A stretch of 64,000 nucleotides of DNA from Candidatus Nomurabacteria bacterium (GTDB taxonomy: Bacteria; Patescibacteriota; Patescibacteriia; HK-STAS-PATE-3), in the NCBI GenBank assembly GCA_023898465.1, contig CP060223.1:800001-864000 (forward strand). The letters are read 5' to 3'. The translations under genes and the position numbers were made by a program. How positions within the stretch are numbered: position 1 is the first letter of the stretch; each line of letters starts with the position of its first letter. Under the pieces are notes generated by a model. It was not told the DNA's origin, did not search any database, and saw only the letters and a list, made by a program, of their open reading frames with translations. This document shows, piece after piece, positions 5,479-56,183 of the stretch.

Positions 5479-5723
5479 ACTTCAGGCCACATTTGTTTGC
5501 CGTCCTGGTCAAAAAGCTTGATAGCATCCACCGGACAAGACTTCGCCGCTTCTAAAATCATCTCTTCTTCATCACCAATGGGATGCTCTTTATCGACAAA
5601 CTCAACTTTACCTTGACCATCGAGTTGGAAGGTCTTAGCCGCTAAAGCCACGCAAGAGGCCGCGCTAATGCAGGTTTCTTGATCTAGCTCAATCTTGCCG
5701 ATTTTTTTGTCCTTGTCTGCCAT
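5475..5723 (-). CDS. small ferredoxin-like protein (single Fe-S cluster, CxxxxxC…CP)
   Basis: 82 aa. CISAASC … CPVDAI motif. First structural gene after the Rrf2 regulator. Confidence 0.5.
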   Translation of the reverse strand: MADKDKKIGKIELDQETCISAASCVALAAKTFQLDGQGKVEFVDKEHPIGDEEEMILEAAKSCPVDAIKLFDQDGKQMWPEV

Positions 5724-5726
5724 AGG

Positions 5727-6137
5727 TTATGAGCTTACCTGAGTATGGAGTAACTTATCAAGTCGCATTTTGCTGAGCTTAGATTCCATTGCTTCTCGCA
5801 CCTGCACCCAAATATCATGCGTGGTACAAAAGTCCTGCCGAGGGCAACCCTGTGCGCTCCGTTCACAAGCCAGCACATCTAATTCATGCACCGCATGCAG
5901 TATTTCACCTACGTTAATTTCCTTGGGTGAACGGGTCAGACGATAGCCTCCCTGACTACCTCGGCTGCTCTCTACTAAACCAGCCTGACGTAAATATACC
6001 ATTAACTGTTCAGCATAGGTGTAAGGCACTCGCTCCTGCTCTGCGAGATTGCGCAAAGAAAGACTGGCTTGACCGTGCTGCCTGGCCAGACCGAGCATGA
6101 GAGCTAAGCCATAGTCACCTTTAGTAGAAAACTTCAT
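5727..6137 (-). CDS. Rrf2-family transcriptional regulator (IscR/SufR-like)
   Basis: 136 aa. N-terminal wHTH (MKFSTKGDYGLALMLGLA…). Three clustered Cys (CERSAQGCPRQDFC) for cluster ligation. Heads the suf operon. Confidence 0.8.
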   Translation of the reverse strand: MKFSTKGDYGLALMLGLARQHGQASLSLRNLAEQERVPYTYAEQLMVYLRQAGLVESSRGSQGGYRLTRSPKEINVGEILHAVHELDVLACERSAQGCPRQDFCTTHDIWVQVREAMESKLSKMRLDKLLHTQVSS

Positions 6138-43249: not shown

Positions 43250-44468
43250 ATTCGCTTATCCCCGCGGTGGGGCTGAGCGACATATGCTCGACCTGATTAA
43301 AGTGCTGCAAGCCCATGGCCATGAGGTGTCGGTCTTTGCTATGCGTCATCCTGAGAATCTGCTCTGGCCTGATAGCGACCTCTTTGTCTCACAGGTCAAC
43401 TTTGAGCATCCACGTAGCTTTAGTGAAAAGTTGCGAGCTGCCGGACGAATGTTGTGGTCATTTGAGGCAGCGCGTAAATTCGGTGAACTGCTTGATCGAC
43501 GTCAACCTGATCTTGTGCACGTACACAATATCTATCATCAAATCTCGCCTTCAATATTACGTGAAGCAAAGAAGCGCGGCATACCGGTCGTCATGACTTT
43601 GCATGACTTCAAATTCATTGCGCCAAACTACTTACTATATGCCGATGGTAAAGTGAGTGAAGCTACTAAACCGAATAAATATTGGAAGCTCATCCCACAT
43701 CGGGAAATTAAACACTCCTTTGCTGCCTCATTACTTTGCGCTTTAGAAATGTATCTCCACAAAACGCTGCGGGTGTATGAAAAGTATGTTGATGTGTTTA
43801 TCGCACCAAGCCAATTCATGGCTGACAAAGTGCGTGAGTATGGCGTGCAAGCTAAAAGAGTTGAAGTGCTAGCAAACTTTATGCCTCAGCGCGACTTGCC
43901 AAGCTCGCAAGAGAAAGGCTATGCGCTTTTCTTCGGCCGCTTAGCAAAAGAAAAAGGTGTAGATGTGCTCATCGACGCCTGGCGCGAACTCAAAGACATC
44001 CCCCTGAAGATTGCCGGTACCGGACCGGAGGAATTAAAGCTGCGCCAACAAGCTGCTAGTGTTGCTGGTCATCAGATTAGCTTTGTTGGACATCAGAATG
44101 GTAAAGCTCTAGACAAATTAATTGCCGGCGCCCGTCTCATTGTGTTCCCTTCTCGTTGGTATGAAAACCAGCCCATGAGTTTAATTGAAGCATTTCGATT
44201 TCAGAAGCCGGTCATTGCCTCACGCCTAGGCGCCATCCCTGAACTCGTGCATAAAAACGACGGTGGGCGCTTAGTACCACCGAATGATTCCGGCTCTATT
44301 ACCGAAGCAGTCCGCGAGCTTTGGAATAATGCCGAGCTTCAACGCATGGGTGAATACAATTACCAGCGTAGTTTACTTTTTTCCAGCGAAGGGTATTATG
44401 AAAAATACCTATCGCTCTTTGATGAGATTAGTGACAAGTCTCAGTCTCGCACTGAAACTGCTCAGTAG
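43227..44468 (+). CDS. glycosyltransferase family 4
   Basis: Start taken at MKIVQVNKFAYPRGGAERH. C-terminal …FPSRWYENQPMSLIEAFRFQKPVIAS… GT4 E-x7-E region. Confidence 0.85.
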   Translation: MKIVQVNKFAYPRGGAERHMLDLIKVLQAHGHEVSVFAMRHPENLLWPDSDLFVSQVNFEHPRSFSEKLRAAGRMLWSFEAARKFGELLDRRQPDLVHVHNIYHQISPSILREAKKRGIPVVMTLHDFKFIAPNYLLYADGKVSEATKPNKYWKLIPHREIKHSFAASLLCALEMYLHKTLRVYEKYVDVFIAPSQFMADKVREYGVQAKRVEVLANFMPQRDLPSSQEKGYALFFGRLAKEKGVDVLIDAWRELKDIPLKIAGTGPEELKLRQQAASVAGHQISFVGHQNGKALDKLIAGARLIVFPSRWYENQPMSLIEAFRFQKPVIASRLGAIPELVHKNDGGRLVPPNDSGSITEAVRELWNNAELQRMGEYNYQRSLLFSSEGYYEKYLSLFDEISDKSQSRTETAQ

Positions 44469-44513
44469 TCTTGTCTTTCCGCACCTTACAGCACTCGCAA
44501 CCTTGGAGGGAGT

Positions 44514-44909
44514 ATGCGACGTTTCTTTTTGGCACTAGGCTTTTTGAGTGGCTTGGGACTCGTGCTCGGCGCTTTCTGTTTCTTCGTCCACATTACCGTG
44601 GACTGGCATGAGAGTCGAAATGAGGTACATCGCATCGGCAACATCGCCAGTCATATCATCAAAGTGAAGGAGGCAACGGGCGAATGGCCGAGCAGGATCG
44701 AAGGCGATGAAACCGACTTCTGGGGCCAACACTATCAAGTGATTCGCGAAACAGCAAGCGTCTGCGCCCTTGTCTCAAAAGGGCCAAACGAACGACTGGA
44801 CACAAACGGTCGCTCGCTGATCAACAGGAAGAAAAATGGAGATGACATCGTCATCTTGATCGAGTCTCAAACGGAGGGACAGGGATTTGTCCAACAAGTG
44901 CTACGCTAG
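44514..44909 (+). CDS. hypothetical membrane-anchored protein (GC-rich island)
   Basis: SD GGAGGGAG. N-terminal TM. Confidence 0.4.
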   Translation: MRRFFLALGFLSGLGLVLGAFCFFVHITVDWHESRNEVHRIGNIASHIIKVKEATGEWPSRIEGDETDFWGQHYQVIRETASVCALVSKGPNERLDTNGRSLINRKKNGDDIVILIESQTEGQGFVQQVLR

Positions 44910-44942
44910 GAGATGAGGCAGTATTGTAGGGATACAGTACTG

Positions 44943-45041
44943 CTTTTTCTTTTACCACGGCGAGGCAGAGAAGTCCCACCTATGTGTTTATTATTACCCA
45001 ATAGCCAAGGCGTCCCGGCCTTGGCAGTTTTTTTCTTTTAC
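44943..45041. repeat. REP-like palindromic element copy 1 (core gccaaggcgtcccggccttggc) with 13-nt flanking direct repeat tttttcttttacc
   Basis: About 85 nt shared with copies at 45881 and 48593. Internal inverted repeat gccaaggc/gccttggc. The same 13-mer occurs at 44945-44957 and 45028-45040. Confidence 0.5.
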
Positions 45042-45167
45042 CTTACGCATTGACAATTTTCGTATTTTAGGGTAGAATGCTCAGTCATAATCTGACACCG
45101 TTTTTTGACACCGTTGACGGAAAGTCGTCAACAAGAACTCACGCAACCCTATCAGAGGAGGGGCGTC

Positions 45168-45803
45168 ATGTGCGACTTGATCCGGGTATACTTCGACTGT
45201 ATGCGACACGGGGAGAGGGAGGGAGATCAACTCACCGCCCTCGGAACCAGGCAGGTCTCTGCCTCGGCTGAGGCCAACCTGGCTGGAACGCGCTATCTCT
45301 TGGCCTTCCACACAGGGATGACCCGCACTTACCAGACCGCCGAGACTATCCTTTCTACCCTGGAGGGGGCCGGCTCCTTGACCCCTCGAGCAGAAGAGGG
45401 CTTCGGCGTGGTTTGGGCACTGAATCAAAAGTGGCCTATCCAGACCGCCCAAGACCAGATCAAGAGTCTCGTAGCCAGCGGCGCTGCTGAGACTGCCGCT
45501 CTTTGGACCTCCTCCTGGCCACCCGCCCTCGCCATCCTTGGACGCTTCCTTGGCACGCTGGAGAAGTGGACAACCTATGCAGCCATGCGTGCTGCTGAAG
45601 ACGGATCACCGGTCGGTGATGGAGTCCGGTTCTTAGTGGCCAGCCACAGCCCCTGCGCTGAACTCGCCGCCCTCGATCCTTCCGCCACTCCGCGTCTCGG
45701 CCCGGCTGACGGTATCACCTACGAAATCGAGGTGGACATCAGAAACCTCGGGATAGTGATCACCTCCTCCGAGGTCTGGCGCTGCCCCGAAGGAGTCGAG
45801 TAG
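45168..45803 (+). CDS. histidine phosphatase superfamily (phosphoglycerate-mutase-like) protein
   Basis: RHGE catalytic motif in DCMRHGEREGDQLTALGTRQ. SD GAGGAGGGG. Flanked on both sides by REP-like copies. Confidence 0.55.
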   Translation: MCDLIRVYFDCMRHGEREGDQLTALGTRQVSASAEANLAGTRYLLAFHTGMTRTYQTAETILSTLEGAGSLTPRAEEGFGVVWALNQKWPIQTAQDQIKSLVASGAAETAALWTSSWPPALAILGRFLGTLEKWTTYAAMRAAEDGSPVGDGVRFLVASHSPCAELAALDPSATPRLGPADGITYEIEVDIRNLGIVITSSEVWRCPEGVE

Positions 45804-45880
45804 CTTTCCCGCTCTTTCGCCCTGAGACGCTCAGCGTCTTCACCCGGGCACCCGAAGCCGTAGACTTCTCCAGTCTGCGG

Positions 45881-45965
45881 CTTTTTTCTTTTACCACGGC
45901 GGGACAGAGACGCCCCTCCTATGTGCTTATTATTACCCCATAGCCAAGGCGTCTCGGCCTTGGCG
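45881..45965. repeat. REP-like palindromic element copy 2
   Basis: cttttttcttttaccacggcgggacagagacgcccctcctatgtgcttattattaccccatagccaaggcgtctcggccttggcgg. Confidence 0.5.
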
Positions 45966-46058
45966 GAGCTTATGAAGACTTGAAAAAAACACATGTTCGT
46001 GTATGATGGCCTCGATCACATAATGTACCTTGCAGATAACAAGTAGGAGGTATCAGAC

Positions 46059-46391
46059 ATGTCTGGCTTCGGAATTTCCCTCACTGAATATGAGATAGGA
46101 TTCAGCTCTCAGGATCCTTGGAGTTTTACTGACAGACTCTCCCGATTGGGAGTCATGACCACCCATGGCCTGATCGTCGGGGAACTGTCATCAGGACAGG
46201 GTGACGCGATTCTCTGGATCGATGAAGCATCTCTCTCATCAGTCCCGATCCAATGGGTCGTTCCAAAATCAGCCCACACACTTCATGGAGTCACCACACA
46301 CATTGTGGAAATTCCTGAAGATGAAATCATTTGCTTCGCCGATCCTCCCAAGCCGATCCGTGCCTATGGCATAGACCCCGGACTTCTATGA
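46059..46391 (+). CDS. hypothetical protein (GC-rich island)
   Basis: SD AGGAGG. 110 aa. Confidence 0.4.
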   Translation: MSGFGISLTEYEIGFSSQDPWSFTDRLSRLGVMTTHGLIVGELSSGQGDAILWIDEASLSSVPIQWVVPKSAHTLHGVTTHIVEIPEDEIICFADPPKPIRAYGIDPGLL

Positions 46392-46539
46392 CTGTCCACT
46401 ACGACACCCATCACTTCCTGATAGGGTGTCTTTCTTTTACATTGACCCAATACCTCATTCTTGCTAATCTGGGCCCGCTACTGCTAGCACTTGAGAGTCT
46501 AGCTCATTGGAAATTGAATCCAACCAGTGAGGGAAACAC

Positions 46540-47028
46540 ATGCGACTCCAAATCACCGTGACGAATGATGTCGACGTCGACGTCATTCATCGAGTTCTCA
46601 AATCCCCTGCGTTCGCCAACAAGCTCTTCCATGAGATCGTCGGCACGCTCTTTCCTGAACAGACGGTGGGGCCAGCCGAGTTCATGATCGAGGAGCCGGT
46701 ACGAGCACTGGGCTGTGTCCCTGAGACGCCTCTCGGGATCCGACTCACCCTACTCGAAGTAAGGCAGGATAGGATCCCGGTCAAGACCTTCCACCAACTG
46801 GTGGCAAAGATGACTGAGCTACTCGGAACCGCCTTGACTGCCTACCTTGGACCCAGGGCGGGTCATGTTCAGACCTGCAGCTTCCTGATGCTCGACCGCG
46901 CCATCGAAACGACGCCTGGTAGCGGGATACTGAGCACGGTCATCAACTCGGAACCTCGCTGGGTCGACCTGAGGACCTACCCCGGAGTCACCGAGTCCGC
47001 TACGACGCCGGTCGGAGCCTGCGGCTAG
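46540..47028 (+). CDS. hypothetical protein (GC-rich island)
   Basis: SD GAGGGAAA. 162 aa. Bidirectional terminator acacccgatt…aatcgggtgt at 47042-47080. Confidence 0.4.
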   Translation: MRLQITVTNDVDVDVIHRVLKSPAFANKLFHEIVGTLFPEQTVGPAEFMIEEPVRALGCVPETPLGIRLTLLEVRQDRIPVKTFHQLVAKMTELLGTALTAYLGPRAGHVQTCSFLMLDRAIETTPGSGILSTVINSEPRWVDLRTYPGVTESATTPVGACG

Positions 47029-47080
47029 CCGCGACCACAAAACACCCGATTGCTTTACGTAATCGGGTGTCTTCCTTTTC

Positions 47081-48037
47081 TTAAGATCCAAATACATTCT
47101 CAAATAAAACGCCAAGCGGATTACTGAGAATCCAAAGTAAGTACGCGTAGCCAAATAATTGTAGCGCCACAAGCACCAACACAAGTGACCAAATACTCGC
47201 CGCAATCCATAGCTCAACCTTCCCCATCTTCCAGCGCTCACGTTTCAAAATGTGTCCCATAACTAACTGAACACCCCAGATCAATATAGTAATAACGATA
47301 CCAACCACGGTAATACCGCTACCAACTTTGGCAACTAAGAGTATGTTCTTAAACTGTTGGAATTTTTTTGCTGCTAAGGCCCCAACTGCAGCTGCATCAG
47401 CAGCGCCTCGGACACCTTCTCCTCGTAGGAGAGCCTCGGCACCACTGGCCACTCCACGGGCTCGGGCTTGACCGAGCCCACGCTTCAAGGCTCTTTGTTC
47501 TGCTACCTTACCTAAGCGAGTGGTTGGTTGGGAAGCCTTTTCCTGTTGGGTAATTTCATCGCCTAGTTTACCTCCAACTTTATCTACTAGTCTCTGGCCT
47601 ATAGAAGGATCTTTTGTCGTTGTTCTAGGCTGCGCTGCTTTATTCGCGACCTCTCCGTTCCTTGCTCGTTTTAGTGCCGCCTGATTATATTGCTGAGGCC
47701 TCTGTTTACTTGAAACAGAATTGGCAGGCTGCGCACTAGTTTGTGTTGCATCTTGCCCTGCAAAAGCTTGAGAGGGTGAGTTTACTTGTGCCTCGTCTTG
47801 TGATTCCTGTACATCAGCCTGAGCATGACCAAGACTATCTGCAGCAATCGCTGTGCCTAGATTAGCCGCATCATTAAAAGGCGTCCCGGTTGCTAAAATA
47901 GGTCGTATGTTTTGCGGATTGGCTTTTTTTTGACGCGCCCGACGTCGTAAACGACTCAACAAACGTTGCTGCACCTCTGGATTTCGAGGCTCAGTCGCTT
48001 GTGTGCCAGTCCCTCGCGATTGTGTTTGTTGCTCCAT
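47081..48037 (-). CDS. hypothetical membrane protein, Gln/Ala-rich low-complexity N-terminus and C-terminal TM helices
   Basis: About 318 aa from the ATG. Low-complexity N-terminus. C-terminal TMs ILLVAKVGSGITVVGIVITILIWGV and IAASIWSLVLVLVALQLFGYAYLLWIL. Confidence 0.4.
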   Translation of the reverse strand: MEQQTQSRGTGTQATEPRNPEVQQRLLSRLRRRARQKKANPQNIRPILATGTPFNDAANLGTAIAADSLGHAQADVQESQDEAQVNSPSQAFAGQDATQTSAQPANSVSSKQRPQQYNQAALKRARNGEVANKAAQPRTTTKDPSIGQRLVDKVGGKLGDEITQQEKASQPTTRLGKVAEQRALKRGLGQARARGVASGAEALLRGEGVRGAADAAAVGALAAKKFQQFKNILLVAKVGSGITVVGIVITILIWGVQLVMGHILKRERWKMGKVELWIAASIWSLVLVLVALQLFGYAYLLWILSNPLGVLFENVFGS

Positions 48038-48173
48038 GCTCACTAAACTGTACGAAAAAAAAGACTTTCGAGCAAGTTCAAGATAAAATCACTTGCTGAT
48101 CAAATAAACATAGAGTAGTATGCATTTGTCGGGGTTCTACCGACTTTGCACCTTCGCATCGAAGGAGGTCTCC

Positions 48174-48380
48174 ATGCATTCATTGCTCACTTTCAGCGTT
48201 TCAGTCGCTGCATACATCGTCTTTGTGATCCTATCGGCCCGCTTCTGTGGAATGAACGATCGGGCTATGCGGCTCGCCGGTTTGATTGATCGGGTTTCTT
48301 ACCCGTCCAAGATCGAGCCCGAAGACAAATCGGCGTGGCCCCGCGCTCGCACCAAGGAGGAAGTGCCATTAGCGAGTTGA
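48174..48380 (+). CDS. hypothetical small membrane protein
   Basis: SD AAGGAGG. TM SVSVAAYIVFVILSA. Terminator gacgccg…cggcgtc at 48396-48430. Confidence 0.35.
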   Translation: MHSLLTFSVSVAAYIVFVILSARFCGMNDRAMRLAGLIDRVSYPSKIEPEDKSAWPRARTKEEVPLAS

Positions 48381-48427
48381 TCTCAGAACCGGTCTGACGC
48401 CGTACCTAGCAAGGTGCGGCGTCTTCT

Positions 48428-48994
48428 TTATGTAAAACCTTTTTCCTCATATGCGTGATAAGAAGACCAATTCCAATCCTTTGGATCTTTTACCAAGCTA
48501 GCACGTACTGGATTGTAGTGGATATAATGAATGAGATGGTGGAGATATTGGTCAGTATCTACTACGCGGTCATAAAAAGAATCTTGCCATATCTTTTTCA
48601 TGCGACGGCGGGACAGAGACGCCCCGCCTATATGTTTATTATTACCCATAGCCAAGGCGTCTCGGCCTTGGCGGGGTATATCGGCGTCTCGGCCTTGGCG
48701 AGACTTATACATTTGTTGAGTCGTATAACTTTTAATACTATGCATCACCTCCGACACATTCTTCTTCCCTATTATCTCAAACAACACATGGATGTGATCT
48801 GGCATCACCACGTAGGCTAGCAGCCGTATCCAATGTTTCTTATGCAAGAAGAACAGAGTCTCAACGACAATCCTGGAGAGTTCTTTATTCAAGAATAGCT
48901 TTTTCCGTCGGTGGGTATTTGCGGTGACAAAATACACCCTTGTTTCAGCGTTGTAGGTACGACGAAGACGAGACATGAGGACACCTCGTGCCAC
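48428..48994 (-). mobile_element. REP-associated tyrosine transposase (RAYT; IS200/IS605-like Y1 HUH) with in-frame REP-like insertion between HUH and Tyr motifs
   Basis: HUH motif MPDHIHVLF. Catalytic Tyr motif HYIHYNPV. REP copy 3 (48593-48700) lies in-frame inside the ORF and encodes …RQGRDADIPRQGRDALAMGNNKHIGGASLSRR…. Confidence 0.65.
48593..48700. repeat. REP-like palindromic element copy 3 (with tandem duplication of ggcgtctcggccttggcg) embedded in the RAYT ORF
   Basis: Sequence shared with copies 1 and 2. The duplicated 18-mer lies at 48656-48673 and 48683-48700. Confidence 0.5.
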
Positions 48995-49039
48995 CGTTTG
49001 TCTATCTTCACACTAAACTAATCCTTTTACCTTGGCAAA

Positions 49040-49624
49040 CTACCCATACTTCGCCAGAAGTAATCGGGCTGCCTCGCGAATATCTTCCACCCGGTAAAAG
49101 ATAAACTTACCTTGCGTGCTAATGCCCCATTCTAGTATTAATCCCTTCTTCGGCATACGGCACGCCAAGAGAATACGTTGTTTTTCAGCAGGGCTAAGAA
49201 ATTTTTTTAACCCAATGCTTTGGGTGAGTTTACCTTTTTGATAGGTGTAACTAGCTGTCACTTTCCCATAGCGCATGAGGTTCACAATTGGGCCACGAGT
49301 TGCTTCAATAACTACGCGATCACGCTCCAGTAAAATTGTGCCGCCTTTTTTCCATTTCCATGAAGGGTAGACAACAAACAAGGCGCGATGAGGGTGCTCG
49401 CGCTGCAGACGATCAACAGTGGCGGCAACTTTACTTGGTGCCACCCAATTCGCATACAAGTTTTTCCACGGACCACCGCGTACTTCCACAGTGCGAATTG
49501 TCCAGCCACGATATGCATCAATGTTTTGAATACCACGCAGCTCTTTTGAAGAACGCACAAATTGCCACTCAGGATGAGGTAGACCAGCTGCGTCTATTTT
49601 CTTTAGCCCTTGTAGGATGGTCAT
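49040..49624 (-). CDS. mini ATP-grasp protein resembling the N-terminal nucleotide-binding domain of PEP synthase/PPDK (PPDK_N-like fragment)
   Basis: 194 aa. KIDAAGLPHPEWQFV resembles the GLPVPPGFV loop. FVVYPSWKWKKGGTILLERDRVVIEATRG resembles the Mg/ATP-binding strand. 4-nt overlap with the upstream paralogue. Confidence 0.4.
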   Translation of the reverse strand: MTILQGLKKIDAAGLPHPEWQFVRSSKELRGIQNIDAYRGWTIRTVEVRGGPWKNLYANWVAPSKVAATVDRLQREHPHRALFVVYPSWKWKKGGTILLERDRVVIEATRGPIVNLMRYGKVTASYTYQKGKLTQSIGLKKFLSPAEKQRILLACRMPKKGLILEWGISTQGKFIFYRVEDIREAARLLLAKYG

Positions 49625-51231
49625 AACTTACGGACAATTCCTTTCGTTGCATCGACCTCCACTTGGTCACCGTCTTTCAATACTTTGGTAGCAATCTTTG
49701 TGCCAATGACGCAGGGGATTTTTAGCTCCCGAGAAACAATGGCTGCATGCGAAGTTACGCCACCCTGCTCGGTCACAATCGCTGCAGCTTTTTTCATCGC
49801 TGCTACAATGTCCGGGTCAGTAGCAATCGAAACAAGAATATCACCGCGTTGCATTTTTGCCATATCCTTTGGACGAATAATAATCTTAACTCGTCCAGTC
49901 GCTTTTCCTACACAACCTGTCTGACCATGAAGCTCTTCACTTGATTCGTGCTTCATAGACTGCAACTGCTTCTTCATTCTCTTTGCTGCAGCGCCTACGA
50001 GAATAGTATCCCTATTCTTTTCACTGATGTAGACGCATTCTTTCACTCGTTGTTTCAGCATCGATCGAGATAAATGACCACGAGTTAAGGCGGCATGAAC
50101 TTCTTTAGGCAACATGAAGCGCATTTCTTTGAGTGAAATGTGGAGACGCCGGGCAATTTCTTTTTGCAAAAATTCCATTTTATAAAGTGCATATATCTGC
50201 GCAAAGCGACGATAAATTTTTGTTACCATGAAATCACCAAAGGCTAAGAAAAGCGTTTTCCATTTTCCGCTAATTCGGTATTGTCGCAGGTAGCGTTCAC
50301 GCAAACTATTTGCAGTCTGTAATTTCTTCTTTTCCTCTTTGAGCAACGCGGCGATGTCAGACTTCTGACCAATAAGTTTCACCAGCTCTTTTAGGTAGTA
50401 CGTAAAATGCGCAGTTTCACCAATCCACATCCTCGGTACATAGAAGTAGCTCGCATAATGCTTTTGTATACGTTTCAGTATTTCCGGACTTATCGCATCT
50501 ATCAATTGGTCAGCTCGCTGCTCTAGACCATGCTCAAATTCTTCGGTATGCGTTTGCCAGCCATAGGGTCCTGCTTCTTTATTTAAGAAAGTAGAATATA
50601 TATCAGCGAATAATTTTTTCTGTTTGGCATTTTTTTGTATGGCAAAAGCAATGTGCAAAAAATCTTCACGTTCTTTCTGAATCAGTGAAATGCTTCGTGG
50701 ATGAGTGAGCGCGACAAACACCTCATTTACTTTTGCTTCAGGTACTCCTTGCGTTGCTAAATACTGCTTCATCCGATCAGTGAGGTTGTTGTGAAACATA
50801 TCTGCAGCAACCGGTATCCAACACCACTGATAGTACTCCGTGTGCAAACGATCATGCTCAGTATATAATTGCCACAACTTAGTATTACTCTGCTTCTCTA
50901 AGCCCGTCTCGGGTAGCTTTTCAGTAAAGCGTCGTAAGCGATCTGCTTGATGCAGTATCTCTTTATTTACTTGTGTGGCAAAGGCAGGCTCTTGAATAAA
51001 ACGATTAACAATGTGATCGCCCTCGGTCTTCGCATCATCGTGATCATAATAAAACCAGAGATGGTAGCCCTGGTAATAAGTAGCCACTCGTTGATACGCT
51101 CGTCCATTCGGTTTTGCAAACTCATTAGTAAAACATGACAACCAGATTTGCGAAAAAGCAAAATCAATATCTGGAATATCCTCAGCTAGCATCCAATTGA
51201 TACTTTGCTTTTGTATTTTAGGAGAGCTCAT
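49621..51231 (-). CDS. PEP-utilising-enzyme mobile (phosphohistidine swivel) domain protein, paralogue 1
   Basis: 536 aa. C-terminus GGVTSHAAIVSRELKIPCVIGTKIATKVLKDGDQVEVDATKGIV. N-terminal 430 aa of unknown fold. Confidence 0.6.
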   Translation of the reverse strand: MSSPKIQKQSINWMLAEDIPDIDFAFSQIWLSCFTNEFAKPNGRAYQRVATYYQGYHLWFYYDHDDAKTEGDHIVNRFIQEPAFATQVNKEILHQADRLRRFTEKLPETGLEKQSNTKLWQLYTEHDRLHTEYYQWCWIPVAADMFHNNLTDRMKQYLATQGVPEAKVNEVFVALTHPRSISLIQKEREDFLHIAFAIQKNAKQKKLFADIYSTFLNKEAGPYGWQTHTEEFEHGLEQRADQLIDAISPEILKRIQKHYASYFYVPRMWIGETAHFTYYLKELVKLIGQKSDIAALLKEEKKKLQTANSLRERYLRQYRISGKWKTLFLAFGDFMVTKIYRRFAQIYALYKMEFLQKEIARRLHISLKEMRFMLPKEVHAALTRGHLSRSMLKQRVKECVYISEKNRDTILVGAAAKRMKKQLQSMKHESSEELHGQTGCVGKATGRVKIIIRPKDMAKMQRGDILVSIATDPDIVAAMKKAAAIVTEQGGVTSHAAIVSRELKIPCVIGTKIATKVLKDGDQVEVDATKGIVRKL

Positions 51232-52331
51232 GCTCCTAATCTTCGCACAATTCCCTGGTTCGCGTCTACTTCTACGAGATCGCCGCTTTGTAGACTACTG
51301 GTAGCAAATTTTGTACCAATAACGCAAGGAACTTTCAACTCCCGGGCTACGATTGAAGCGTGACTAGTCACTCCACCTTCATCAGTAACAATCGCCCCAG
51401 CTCGCTTCATGGCTGGTATATAACGCGGATCAGTCATTGAGGTTACTAAAATTTCGCCCTGGCGTAGTTTTGTAGCATCGGCGATTTTTTGAATTAAACG
51501 CACTTTGCCTTTTACCTTGCCAGGGAAAGCCACGTTGCCCTTGAGTAGCCCCTTCGTTGCTTTCGGTAATGACAAACCAAAGCGTTTCAATGCGCTAGCT
51601 GAATTTGAGTACGCATATACGTTTTTGCCTTGCTTCAACACAAAACGTTTTCTTCGATTACGTAGCCTTTTTATCGACGGGAGTTTTCCAGAATTTAAGT
51701 ACTCAGTAAATTCACTAAGTAGCAAATACTCCAAAACCTCTATTGCGAGCTTTTCAGACTTTTCAATTTGACGCAGTAATCTTTTCTGCAAATCAATACC
51801 TACCCGGTAAAAGTCAGCTCCTTGTGCACGGCCTTGTAAGAAGAGTTTCAGGACTGCGGGAGTAACTTGATCTGAAACAAACTCTGGCACTTCGATACAA
51901 GCAACTAAGAACGGTAGAGCATCGTGAAAATATTCATGCAATTGAAGTATCGCCGCTTTCGGATCAGCGTGCTCCTGTTGTACAAATATATTATACGAGC
52001 GAAGTAAGGCATCGTGCTGCTTTTTTTGCTGCTTCAGTTTTGCCAGCGTACCATGTGTTTTTACCCAACCTTGCGCTGCGCCTTGTAAATCTTCATCCGC
52101 CATAAAGTGCCATAAAACACCATTCTCAACATACACATGGATTGGGCGAATCTGATGCGAAAAAAAATCTCGTGAAGCTTTATTAAGAAATGCTTCAATA
52201 ACTACTGAGGTTGCTAATACAGTATAATCTCTTTGATGTGGGGTATAGTGAAGCTTCATAGCTTTTACTCTAGCACATAATTCAGCACTCTTATCAAGAA
52301 AGAGGCGGCAGTTCATATTGACTGCCGCCAT
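51228..52331 (-). CDS. PEP-utilising-enzyme mobile domain protein, paralogue 2 (shorter N-terminal region)
   Basis: 367 aa. C-terminus GGVTSHASIVARELKVPCVIGTKFATSSLQSGDLVEVDANQGIV. Confidence 0.6.
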   Translation of the reverse strand: MAAVNMNCRLFLDKSAELCARVKAMKLHYTPHQRDYTVLATSVVIEAFLNKASRDFFSHQIRPIHVYVENGVLWHFMADEDLQGAAQGWVKTHGTLAKLKQQKKQHDALLRSYNIFVQQEHADPKAAILQLHEYFHDALPFLVACIEVPEFVSDQVTPAVLKLFLQGRAQGADFYRVGIDLQKRLLRQIEKSEKLAIEVLEYLLLSEFTEYLNSGKLPSIKRLRNRRKRFVLKQGKNVYAYSNSASALKRFGLSLPKATKGLLKGNVAFPGKVKGKVRLIQKIADATKLRQGEILVTSMTDPRYIPAMKRAGAIVTDEGGVTSHASIVARELKVPCVIGTKFATSSLQSGDLVEVDANQGIVRRLGA

Positions 52332-52661
52332 GTAGACGCGAGCCCCACAGAGCTCTTTCCCTAGGTCTGTCTACCTGACCGAGTTCGCCCAAAGACGATC
52401 TCCTGCTGTTTACCTCTTTCGAGGTGGCTTGGACTTGCTCCGCATGAGGGGACAGCAGTTATTCCTCGCAACGGGGTCCCACACCCGAGACTTCCGGTTG
52501 GCCGTATCCGTTGCAGCTTCTTGAAGAACAATGCGGAGTCACCGCGAAGTCTCGATTAGGACAATGCCACCCGCTTCTTCATGAGAGAAACCTCCCTTCC
52601 ATCAAAAAGCCATGGCATTAAAAATAATACCACGCTGTACTTATACTGGCGAGCAATTTTT
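52332..52661. ncRNA. 330-nt ORF-free, GC-rich, highly structured spacer (candidate structured RNA of unknown class)
   Basis: Several nested helices: ctgctgt…acagcag, gcaacgg…ccgttgc, cgagacttc…gaagtctcg (pseudoknot-compatible). No ORF on either strand. Confidence 0.25.
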
Positions 52662-54227
52662 TTACAACTTTCTGACTAAACCCTTGGTAGCATCCACTTC
52701 CACCTTGTCACCATCCTTCAAAATCTTATTCGCTACCTTCGTCCCTACTACGCAGGGCACACCAAGCTCGCGCGAGACAATAGCCGCATGTGAAGTCAAA
52801 CCTCCGGCGTTGGTCACGATTGCAGCGGCTAGCTTCATTGCTGGTACCAGACTGGGATAGGTTGTCTCAGAAACCAAAATATCACCTTTTTTCATTTTTG
52901 GAATATCCGCCGGCACCTCAATAATTTTTACCGTACCAGAAGCAGCTCCCGGAGAAGCGCATGAACCCGTTAGCTCACTTGCCTCGGTGGTAATCAAGGT
53001 ATCCTCTTTAGGAATTTCTTTCATGAACTTCTTTGCCTTCTGACCAGTCAAAACGATATATTGCTTCTTATCGCAATACGCCACTGTCTCCCGAGTTCGC
53101 GCCAGCAGCTCTTTCATAGTCGGGATCGACTTCCCTTGGAGCAAATCCTCAATCTCCCATGAGTTCAGGGCTCGCACAGTTTCCAAAGTCAGCTTATGTC
53201 GCTGAGCAATTTCACGGAAGAATGGTTCATAGCAGTACATACCATGATAGAGTGCGCCTTTTCGAAATTCCTTTATGTACACTATTTCTTGTCCCATGCG
53301 GATGAGCTGCCATATATTGCCTTGGAGGTGTAGAGATTTTTTTAATCGAGCCTGTTTTTGCTTCAGGAGCCTTTCCTTCACCTTCATATCAGCCAAAATC
53401 TGTTTGGGTGACTCACCGCTCTTTAGTAATTCCCTCCAACGAGTGAGGAAGTAGCGAAAGGAATAAGCTGGCCCCTTATACGCGTAGGGAATCCATCGCC
53501 ATTTCTCATAGTGCGCTCGCAGTAAAGCAGCTACTTTTTGATCCACTTCTGCTAATCCCTTTTCGGCCTTTGCGATGGGCGAACGAAGTAGGTGATTTCG
53601 CACCTTAGCAGAGCGCCGAAGCTGATCAGTAATCTGCAAAAACTCTCTTTCCTCCTGCGCAGCAAAACTCAAGCGGGGTGGGCTAGTAAGTAAACTAAAT
53701 ATTTCCGGCAAGGTTGCTGAGTCACCATAACAATCAATTTGTTTCTTGAGCGCTGCTTCTATACCTGTTGACACGCGGGCCTGATCAGCATCAGCCAACC
53801 AAGTGACCGCCGCACCGACCCCGTGGGAAAGTACATGCCAGCGTAAGACCTTACGAAACTCTCGAAGTAACTGTACATCAGTCATCTCACGGATTGGCAG
53901 TGCATATAAATTCCGAGAAGCCTGCATGAAGTTGATTGACCAATCCTCAACCTGCTTCAAGGTCTTTAATCCCCATTGTGGCTTTTGCAACATCTTCTGC
54001 GATAAGCCATCGGCCTGGGTATCAAATTCAGATCGCCGAAACCACATCTGAGAAAAGTCACCTTTGTAGTAGGTAAAGTACTCACTCAGGTGTCCGCCGA
54101 GTCCCATTCGCTTCCATTCCAAAAGAAAAAAGCGAATCGGCGTCCCCATCATAAAAATAGTATTTTCAGTTATTTCAGCTGGGACAAACCACTTGTCACT
54201 TTGCTTTTTTATGGCCTTTTTACCCAT
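52662..54227 (-). CDS. PEP-utilising-enzyme mobile domain protein, paralogue 3
   Basis: 521 aa. C-terminus GGLTSHAAIVSRELGVPCVVGTKVANKILKDGDKVEVDATKGLV. N-terminal region collinear with paralogue 1. Confidence 0.6.
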   Translation of the reverse strand: MGKKAIKKQSDKWFVPAEITENTIFMMGTPIRFFLLEWKRMGLGGHLSEYFTYYKGDFSQMWFRRSEFDTQADGLSQKMLQKPQWGLKTLKQVEDWSINFMQASRNLYALPIREMTDVQLLREFRKVLRWHVLSHGVGAAVTWLADADQARVSTGIEAALKKQIDCYGDSATLPEIFSLLTSPPRLSFAAQEEREFLQITDQLRRSAKVRNHLLRSPIAKAEKGLAEVDQKVAALLRAHYEKWRWIPYAYKGPAYSFRYFLTRWRELLKSGESPKQILADMKVKERLLKQKQARLKKSLHLQGNIWQLIRMGQEIVYIKEFRKGALYHGMYCYEPFFREIAQRHKLTLETVRALNSWEIEDLLQGKSIPTMKELLARTRETVAYCDKKQYIVLTGQKAKKFMKEIPKEDTLITTEASELTGSCASPGAASGTVKIIEVPADIPKMKKGDILVSETTYPSLVPAMKLAAAIVTNAGGLTSHAAIVSRELGVPCVVGTKVANKILKDGDKVEVDATKGLVRKL

Positions 54228-56072: not shown

Positions 56073-56183
56073 CGCAACCCGAGGCGTCTACTTTCCCCAA
56101 GTAGGCGCCTTTCTTCTTGACTTTTTTATCTAAGTGGATAAACATGCCCACGGACACTGTTCGACAAACCATAGGAGGCGCAC

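Follow-up and report, generated by a model that had tools for sequence, protein, structure and literature searches.

The window analyzed here, a stretch of 64,000 nucleotides from Candidatus Nomurabacteria bacterium (GenBank assembly GCA_023898465.1, contig CP060223.1, positions 800,001 to 864,000 of the forward strand), is chromosomal, as indicated by the presence of 16S rRNA, UvrA, SMC and SufBS genes. On its minus strand, at 48428-48976, lies a gene coding for a tyrosine transposase associated with repetitive extragenic palindromes (REPs), i.e., a REP-associated tyrosine transposase (RAYT), also termed TnpAREP. Three copies of a palindromic element are found on the plus strand. Two are intergenic and located at 44957-45027 (copy 1) and 45896-45966 (copy 2), and the third (copy 3) lies at 48605-48674, in frame within the RAYT gene itself. 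Each copy is an inverted pair of REPs, hereafter called a doublet.

A RAYT gene carrying a REP doublet in frame

The core common to the three copies measures 70-71 nt, as delimited by alignment and BLAST, and a repeat search of the window groups them into a single family. Copies 2 and 3 are 94% identical, and copy 1 shares 88% identity with either of them; the copies seen in 64 kb number three. Searches for the hairpin core GCCAAGGCGTCTCGGCCTTGGC and for the spacer motif CCTATGTGYTTATTATTACCC each gave three matches, always on the plus strand, against 0 expected in 100 dinucleotide-preserving shuffles. An earlier note, made from the sequence alone, had reported three copies of a REP-like palindromic element of about 85 nt at this locus; the number was borne out, and the greater length applies to copies 1 and 2, which share the 13-mer TTTTTCTTTTACC on their left side besides the core. 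The whole region is 99.98-100% identical across three independent Logan assemblies, in which the RAYT is called as 182 amino acids, so that the reading frame, noted earlier as remaining open through copy 3, is no sequencing artefact. The organism is present in SRR12358675, SRR23493594, SRR14234116 and SAMN08389219. Nearly every 1-kb bin of the window (1-64000) has a negative GC skew, the plus strand being C-rich throughout, and all three doublets share the same orientation on this strand.

A single REP is composed of an (A/G)TAG tag, a G+C-rich stem of 7-8 bp and a 6-nt GTCTCK loop. In copy 3, REP-b (48607-48628) reads ATAG-GCGGGGC-GTCTCT-GTCCCGC on the minus strand, and REP-a (48651-48672) reads ATAG-CCAAGGC-GTCTCG-GCCTTGG on the plus strand. 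The two tags face each other over about 16 AT-rich bases in all three copies, which is the architecture of REPINs (REP doublets forming hairpins), and the element agrees with the definition of a REP as a palindrome of 20-50 nt that follows a conserved tetranucleotide, usually GTAG. As PMC8266576 and PMC3733652 use the terms, the doublet belongs to the inverted type of bacterial interspersed mosaic elements (BIMEs) or REPINs. The tagged-hairpin pattern has five matches in the window versus 0.6 expected in shuffled sequences, and the same succession of tag, stem and 6-nt loop was found in the window and at loci L004, L008, L001, L014 and L015. Most lineages have ATAG as their tag, P0123 and P0127 having GTAG instead.

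The two intergenic doublets are less well preserved. Their REP-a remains unbroken (45004-45025 in copy 1, 45943-45964 in copy 2), and their second hairpin, REP-b, is decaying, with Watson-Crick pairing left at five of eight positions in the degenerate REP-b of copy 1 and at six of eight in that of copy 2. Copy 3 is followed at 48683-48700 (plus strand) by an 18-nt partial duplicate of the loop and 3' arm of REP-a, GGCGTCTCGGCCTTGGCG, which encodes an extra RQGRDA and is also present in the related RAYT genes P0001 and P0121. A search of positions 44000-49500 against Rfam at E <= 1 returned nothing relevant besides two weak chance matches. At gathering scores, the whole window likewise gave nothing relevant, only 16S rRNA, a tRNA and a borderline match at 56083-56109 (minus strand) to the viral frameshift element weev_FSE (40.1 versus a gathering score of 40 bits), probably spurious in a bacterial chromosome.

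The RAYT, a domesticated transposase and by type an HUH/Y1 endonuclease of single-stranded DNA, is 182 amino acids long when read from the ATG at 48976, and the mechanical open reading frame extends to a GTG at 48994. It carries the HUH motif (PDHIH), the WQ motif, the Tyr motif (YIHYNP) and a C-terminal WSSY tail motif (W-x-W-SS-Y). The earlier assignment of this product to the RAYTs on the basis of its HUH and Tyr motifs passed the profile check, with 124 bits against NCBIfam REP_Tyr_transpos (NF047646; cutoff 80) and E = 1.3e-11 against Pfam Y1_Tnp (PF01797). An AlphaFold model built from 96 homologues (mean predicted local distance difference test, pLDDT, of 86) has as its best structural match the E. 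coli TnpAREP structure 4er8_A (E = 1.2e-9; template modelling score, TM, 0.69/0.76). The protein thereby combines what characterizes class 2 RAYT/TnpAREP proteins, namely an HUH motif, a Tyr within Y---NP and an IS200-like fold.

Copy 3 encodes ...PRQGRDALAMGNNKHIGGASLSRR... and falls between the two motifs. Alignment to 4ER8 proceeds in two blocks, one on either side of the insert, with 57 versus 23 residues in between; the resulting excess of about 34 residues agrees with the lengthening of the HUH-Tyr spacing by about 33 residues proposed earlier. In the model, beta3 (HUH) spans residues 61-68, alphaC 74-97, beta4 135-139 and the Tyr helix 142-158, and residues 98-134, between alphaC and beta4, have a pLDDT of about 50. 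Because of this low confidence, the approximately 34 residues encoded by the doublet are read as an apparently disordered alphaC:beta4 loop, in keeping with the earlier suggestion of a tolerated loop insertion.

Conservation of the insert among related RAYTs

The closest relatives of the window RAYT are P0001 (66% identity), P0121, encoded on L008 (53%), and P0002 (49%). All three carry the same doublet at the same codons, as does the related but degraded copy P0033, the orthologues being 48-66% identical. Across the four intact genes, third-codon-position identity reaches 0.76 within the element versus 0.38 in the remaining gene. The difference persists when only codons with an invariant amino acid are considered (0.81 in the element versus 0.45 elsewhere). 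Of 163 contiguous blocks of 21 codons, those covering the element rank as the top five (permutation p < 5e-5). At the protein level, the peptide QGRDALAMG is conserved in four orthologues.

A profile search extended the comparison to relatives sharing 37-47% identity (P0122-P0129, P0131, P0134 and P0180). All of these proteins have an insert at the same place, the peptides of these distant lineages being unrelated to one another, and the insert is retained in every lineage of the clade. The available DNA of P0122, P0123, P0126, P0127 and P0129 reveals in each case two G+C-rich hairpins (three in P0127), with lineage-specific stems of 8-9 bp and loops of 4-6 nt, located at +276 to +370 from the ATG (to +461 in P0127). 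In the 19 hairpins examined, 142 of 152 stem positions are Watson-Crick paired, versus 23-42% when the partner arm is slid as a control, and most positions are represented by two to four pair types. Perfect hairpins number 2-6 per gene, versus a mean of 0.03-0.12 in codon-shuffled genes. The GTCTCK loop is kept from the window as far as P0127. In P0003 and P0004, which are more distant RAYTs, the loop is about as long but the DNA contains no hairpin pair, so that a common origin with the insert is neither supported nor refuted.

Since orthologues share the codons occupied by the doublet, and since relatives of 37-47% identity have equivalent hairpins at that place, the insertion is ancient and maintained. 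The comparison as a whole shows one ancient insertion, or an origin in situ, followed by compensatory evolution of the nucleic-acid structure, rather than a recent insertion. The insert is constrained as DNA itself. The gene appears to be single-copy and vertically inherited, as judged from its single occurrence in 64 kb and from its synteny, in the window, L004, L014, L015 and L016, with PEP-utilizers gene arrays. As a side observation, in the window (49621-54227), L014, L015 and L016, the RAYT adjoins two to five paralogous genes of about 480-540 codons whose products carry only the PEP-utilizers mobile domain, and these paralogue arrays are conserved over related loci.

Of the 173 homologues retrieved whose motifs could be identified, the HUH motif has D in 162 and N in 11, and YIHYNP is the commonest Tyr motif. 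The HUH-Tyr distance reaches at least 80 residues in 21 of the 173, the extra length follows alphaC in 20 of the 20 with a locatable W, and several have tandem peptide repeats there. P0127 (L024, 1187-1861) has its three REP hairpins in this same loop, the loop of P0176 contains about 2.5 copies of the tandem peptide repeat HRAGNSSPSHKPNT, and that of P0184 an ATRVME-like peptide three times, which suggests in-frame expansion of REP arrays.

REPs outside the gene and their surroundings

Besides the doublet within the gene, a REP is found upstream of the RAYT, at -107 to -66 from its ATG, in L008, L001 and L016, with the same orientation as the in-gene REP-b. The in-gene doublet and these upstream REPs lie within about 1 kb of the gene, as in a REPtron, i.e., a RAYT gene with its cognate REPs; the other two copies of the window lie 2.5 and 3.4 kb away from the RAYT. 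In L008 and L016, the upstream stem is that of the in-gene REP of the same genome, and in L016 the two differ by a compensatory change from G-C to C-G. The upstream stem of L001 (GGCGAGGC) is unlike its in-gene counterpart (ACGGGGC), and tag and loop alone are in common. The intergenic copy of L008 is a full doublet that shares a further eight bases, TCCATCCA, with the coding flank, and a resemblance to the coding sequence that flanks the insert in the orthologues (KL codons) is also seen in AGCTTAT, to the right of copy 2 in the window. Gene and intergenic copies therefore exchange sequence within each lineage, in-gene and flanking REPs evolving in concert. In L001, an intergenic segment (5709-5770) contains the tandem GTAG hairpins GTAG-GGCAGGA-CTTGAG-TCCTGCC and GTAG-GGCCAGG-CTTGAG-CCTGGCC, with the common loop CTTGAG, which may represent a second REP family of that metagenome-assembled genome (MAG).

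How many copies lie beyond these loci was assessed with a 22-base degenerate pattern, ATAGCCAAGGCGTCNNNGCCTTGGC, in one pass each over 185,579 species genomes and 241 million metagenome records. These scans returned only a chance terminator (Paenibacillus, L007), the L008 RAYT gene and the P0001 gene, and, given the single exact match in the L008 MAG, that genome holds the REP-a pattern once. At most one or two extra copies occur within 10 kb on each side of related RAYTs, and when the element was compared with all retrieved loci by short-word BLAST, the only copies were in the gene or adjacent to the RAYT. A REP family in the high-copy, mostly extragenic sense is not supported, with three doublets in 64 kb and the matches of the public scans nearly all within RAYT genes. 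With these three copies and the one match in the L008 MAG, there is no support for a proliferation of REPs, by which RAYT activity is classically recognized.

Each of copies 1 and 2 is exactly framed by an intrinsic terminator upstream and a sigma-70-like promoter downstream. Upstream of copy 1, the 13-mer TTTTTCTTTTACC (44944-44956, plus strand) forms the T-tail of the terminator hairpin 44915-44946; upstream of copy 2, it occurs at 45883-45895 (plus strand) as the tail of the terminator 45854-45884. It recurs to the right of copy 1 at 45030-45042 (plus strand), and this pair of 13-mers had been taken for a target-site duplication. The 13-mer precedes both intergenic copies, yet follows copy 1 only. 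Terminators without any REP have similar tails, both at 46429-46440 and beyond the end of the L008 gene (about 1000-1015), and transposition by HUH/Y1 enzymes of the IS200/IS605 type leaves no target duplication. For these three reasons, we reject the duplication as the best reading of the 13-mer in favor of a terminator T-tail. In the simplest view, each intergenic doublet occupies, or was directed to, the ...CTTTTACC terminus of a terminator tail; copy 1 may conceivably still be flanked by a true duplication. More generally, the terminators of this island have unrelated hairpins and a near-identical tail, T(T/C)TT(T/C)CTTTTAC(C).

Downstream of copy 1, a promoter (TTGACA-17 nt-TAGAAT, 11/12 matches; 45050-45078, plus strand) precedes a gene at 45168-45803 (plus strand), and a second promoter (10/12; 45980-46007, plus strand) lies downstream of copy 2. 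The gene in between encodes a protein of 211 amino acids that had been called a histidine phosphatase. It is indeed bracketed by copies 1 and 2 and has an RHG motif, but its score against Pfam His_Phos_1 (16.8 bits) falls under the cutoff of 21.7, and we refer to it as His-phosphatase-like. Homologues lie beside the RAYT, in divergent orientation and with a REP in between, in L008 (47% identity) and L016 (52%). There, the REP lies just upstream of a TTGACA promoter, the same relation that copy 1 has to the His-phosphatase-like gene of the window. This type of gene is directly adjacent to the RAYT in L008 and L016, and 2.6 kb away from it in the window. It is markedly more G+C-rich than its surroundings at all three loci: 61.6 versus 48.3% in the window, 65.4 versus 55.7% in L008 (1078-1689) and 62.3 versus 57.1% in L016 (9119-9763). 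Searches of the island (44.5-48.4 kb) with PADLOC for defence systems and with PHROGs for phage proteins gave no matches, and the small open reading frames of the same segment gave nothing in Pfam and NCBIfam.

A further junction was recovered from a strain 99% identical to the one studied here. L018 (ENA ERZ28655229, scaffold_176834; 838 nt) joins positions 48250-48674 of the window to 45967-46379 through a single hybrid doublet, thus combining the left flank of copy 3 with the right flank of copy 2, with the crossover within REP-a. A circle or a tandem duplication arising from copies 2 and 3 would leave such a junction, and a chimeric assembly over a 71-nt repeat would do so just as well.

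Proposed function of the doublet and relation to known systems

We consider it likely that this locus is of the REPtron type, i.e., a RAYT accompanied by its cognate REPs, with one inverted doublet built in frame into the gene and the hairpins kept as cis sites of the enzyme. By analogy with the TnpAREP proteins of E. coli, Stenotrophomonas and Marinomonas, for which binding, cleavage and rejoining of tagged hairpins have been shown (PMC8266576, PMC3479197), the RAYT would bind tagged hairpins in single-stranded DNA and would cut and rejoin the DNA beside them. The protein would tolerate the insert owing to its predicted position in a surface loop. The hairpins would be maintained as cis sites either by direct selection or by repeated exchange with the flanking REPs, mediated by the RAYT or by recombination. 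Both intergenic doublets would derive from the same pool, having landed at the ends of terminator T-tails just upstream of promoters, with one of their arms now decaying.

Several points weigh against this proposal. First, binding of the RAYT to these hairpins is proposed by analogy with other TnpAREP proteins. Second, the tag found in most lineages departs from the canonical GTAG. Third, only three copies are present in 64 kb, and the L008 MAG, which was fully scanned, has a single exact match to REP-a. Fourth, the decay of the second hairpin in both intergenic copies speaks against strong selection on whole extragenic doublets. Finally, conservation of the in-gene hairpins could stem from a role at the RNA level, or from gene conversion without benefit.

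A more specific version, which we regard as possible though unlikely, holds that the doublet is a selected cis element. This RAYT clade would keep its own substrate, a "master" REP pair, within the coding sequence, paired with the upstream REP. The enzyme would then act mainly on its own locus without spreading REPs genome-wide. It might regulate itself in this way, or it might serve as a site-specific switch by which the gene is split and rejoined or neighboring cassettes are moved, as is hinted at by the L018 junction. If true, this would be a second, independent clade with REPs in the gene, using another loop than the published cases of subclass 2.4 (see below).

We are similarly doubtful that the doublet is a neutral passenger, that is, an old insert in a permissive loop, homogenized by gene conversion or template switching with nearby copies and of no benefit to the RAYT or the host. 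Such a history would fit the predicted disorder of the insert, the variation of its length and repeat number by lineage (partial duplicates; three hairpins in P0127) and the sharing of flanks as a trace of sequence exchange (eight nucleotides in L008; AGCTTAT beside copy 2); Quentin et al. (PMC6006769) also suggest that such inserts barely affect the protein. However, few donors are visible, with one or two copies within 10 kb on each side and one exact REP-a match in the L008 MAG. Moreover, compensatory changes keep the pairing in every lineage, the GTCTCK loop is conserved from the window to P0127, and the insert has been lost nowhere in the clade.

It seems less probable still that the hairpins work at the RNA level, affecting the stability or translation of the RAYT mRNA, with the intergenic copies serving as terminators or 3'-end stabilizers, as reported for the REPs of other bacteria. 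The location of copies 1 and 2 exactly between terminator and promoter would suit this role. REP-a of copy 1, together with its trailing T-run, scores as a terminator, and one in-gene stem contains a sense-strand G-T pair that would be a legal G-U in RNA. Nevertheless, the element matches no Rfam family, its fold z-scores are modest (-1.3 to -2.5) and the wobble pairs are not consistently on one strand. Furthermore, a tag followed by a hairpin with a conserved loop is the architecture that TnpAREP recognizes on DNA, and the upstream REPs are noncoding and oriented as the in-gene REP-b.

It is very unlikely that the insert is a conserved protein loop, the intergenic copies being dispersed fragments of RAYT coding sequence, i.e., pseudogene debris rather than REPs. 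The intergenic copies do carry some adjacent coding bases (TCCATCCA in L008; AAGCTC, for KL, by copy 2), and the peptide QGRDALAMG is kept in four orthologues. Yet synonymous sites are conserved, the peptides of distant relatives are unrelated while the hairpin geometry persists, and the loop is predicted to be disordered. In addition, the boundaries match the hairpin doublet in three independent copies, and the intergenic copies retain pairing through compensatory changes. Finally, the earlier note had raised the possibility of a REP interrupted during insertion into its own transposase, and of recent REP/RAYT activity in the island. In favor of this, copies 2 and 3 are 94% identical and the L018 junction could have arisen by recombination. 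However, orthologues with as little as 48% identity, as well as syntenic loci, carry the insert at these very codons, the arrangement is identical in three independent assemblies and L018 may be a chimera, so that we reject this reading as contradicted by the orthologues.

The proposed REPtron-type arrangement has a clear precedent. In-frame REPs inside tnpAREP genes were described in 2018 as a hallmark of subclass 2.4 (Quentin, Siguier, Chandler and Fichant; PMC6006769), which corresponds to RAYT group 4 of Bertels. As in the window, the REPs of these proteins lie in frame between the HUH and Tyr motifs, which are about 88 residues apart, and the copy number per genome is low. The insert is variable in length and sequence, contains short repeats and was modelled as a peripheral extension, with little impact suggested on the protein (PMC6006769). 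Their REPs are likewise of the "long" type, in which the tag is followed by an 8-bp stem, with three G-C pairs at its foot, and a 5-6-nt loop, as in GTAG-GGACAGAC-TTTAT-GTCTGTCC (Table S1 of PMC6006769). The WQ motif is also found in both. However, the HUH motif is DHIH in the window RAYT rather than NH[IFV]H, the Tyr motif is YIHYNP rather than YIxNNP, and the C-terminal WSSY tail motif contrasts with the lack of a tail domain in subclass 2.4. The insert is predicted to lie in the alphaC:beta4 loop rather than in the reported beta3:alphaC loop, and the tag is mostly ATAG instead of GT[AG]G. Judged by the motif table only, the window RAYT does not fit subclass 2.4 in HUH motif, Tyr motif, tail and loop. 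We class it as an intragenic-REP RAYT operating in the manner of the subclass 2.4 cases, membership itself not being established.

Other systems share part of this organization. The E. coli REPtron (4ER8; PMC3479197; PMC8266576) has the same fold, HUH and Y...NP motifs, tagged hairpin substrates and, as is probable for the window RAYT, a single-copy gene, and the E. coli BIME, a REP and an inverted REP with a linker, resembles the doublet. In contrast, the REPs of E. coli are extragenic, number hundreds, have a bulged stem and flank the gene, whereas the window has one doublet in coding sequence, perfect stems and few visible copies. Likewise, the REPIN-RAYT systems of Pseudomonas (Bertels and Rainey, 2011; PMC3116915) are based on an inverted REP pair with a spacer as the unit, a RAYT that is single-copy and vertically inherited, as that of the window appears to be, and co-evolution of REP and RAYT. 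Their REPINs form populations of tens to hundreds flanking the RAYT, whereas three copies were seen in the 64 kb of the window, the best-preserved within the gene.

In-frame insertion of palindromes is also known from Rickettsia palindromic elements and from intragenic GTAG/CGTC REPs (Di Nocera et al., 2013; PMC3733652, citing Ogata et al.), which are often dimers encoding 20-30 amino acids and are tolerated by the functional genes that carry them. Those inserts occupy unrelated host genes at varying sites, unlike the present case, in which the host gene would encode the very enzyme presumed, by analogy, to recognize the repeat and the site is fixed across the clade. Finally, elements of the IS200/IS605 family (IS608, ISDra2) also rely on a Y1 HUH enzyme acting on single-stranded DNA hairpins, with a guide tetranucleotide 5' of the hairpin and insertion by a short specific sequence without target duplication. 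They are autonomous and multi-copy and bear hairpins at both ends of the element, unlike this syntenic and probably single-copy gene with hairpins upstream and inside.

The core of what the earlier note found surprising was therefore already published in 2018, and the locus is a good further example rather than a new phenomenon. It nonetheless extends intragenic REPs to proteins with another motif signature and another loop. It also adds evidence that such an insert is constrained as nucleic acid, beyond tolerance; synonymous-site constraint, a fixed insert position and compensatory stem changes across lineages are not reported in PMC6006769.

Arg/Gly/Ala-rich loops of low confidence in RAYTs can be translated REPs, which should serve as a warning for annotation. 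To our knowledge, no benefit of RAYTs to their hosts has been identified, and the movement of REPs by a RAYT has never been watched in a cell. In this respect, the locus provides a compact and testable system in which an enzyme and its presumed substrate, as judged from the E. coli, Stenotrophomonas and Marinomonas enzymes, are contained in one gene, and in which synonymous recoding can separate the peptide from the DNA structure.

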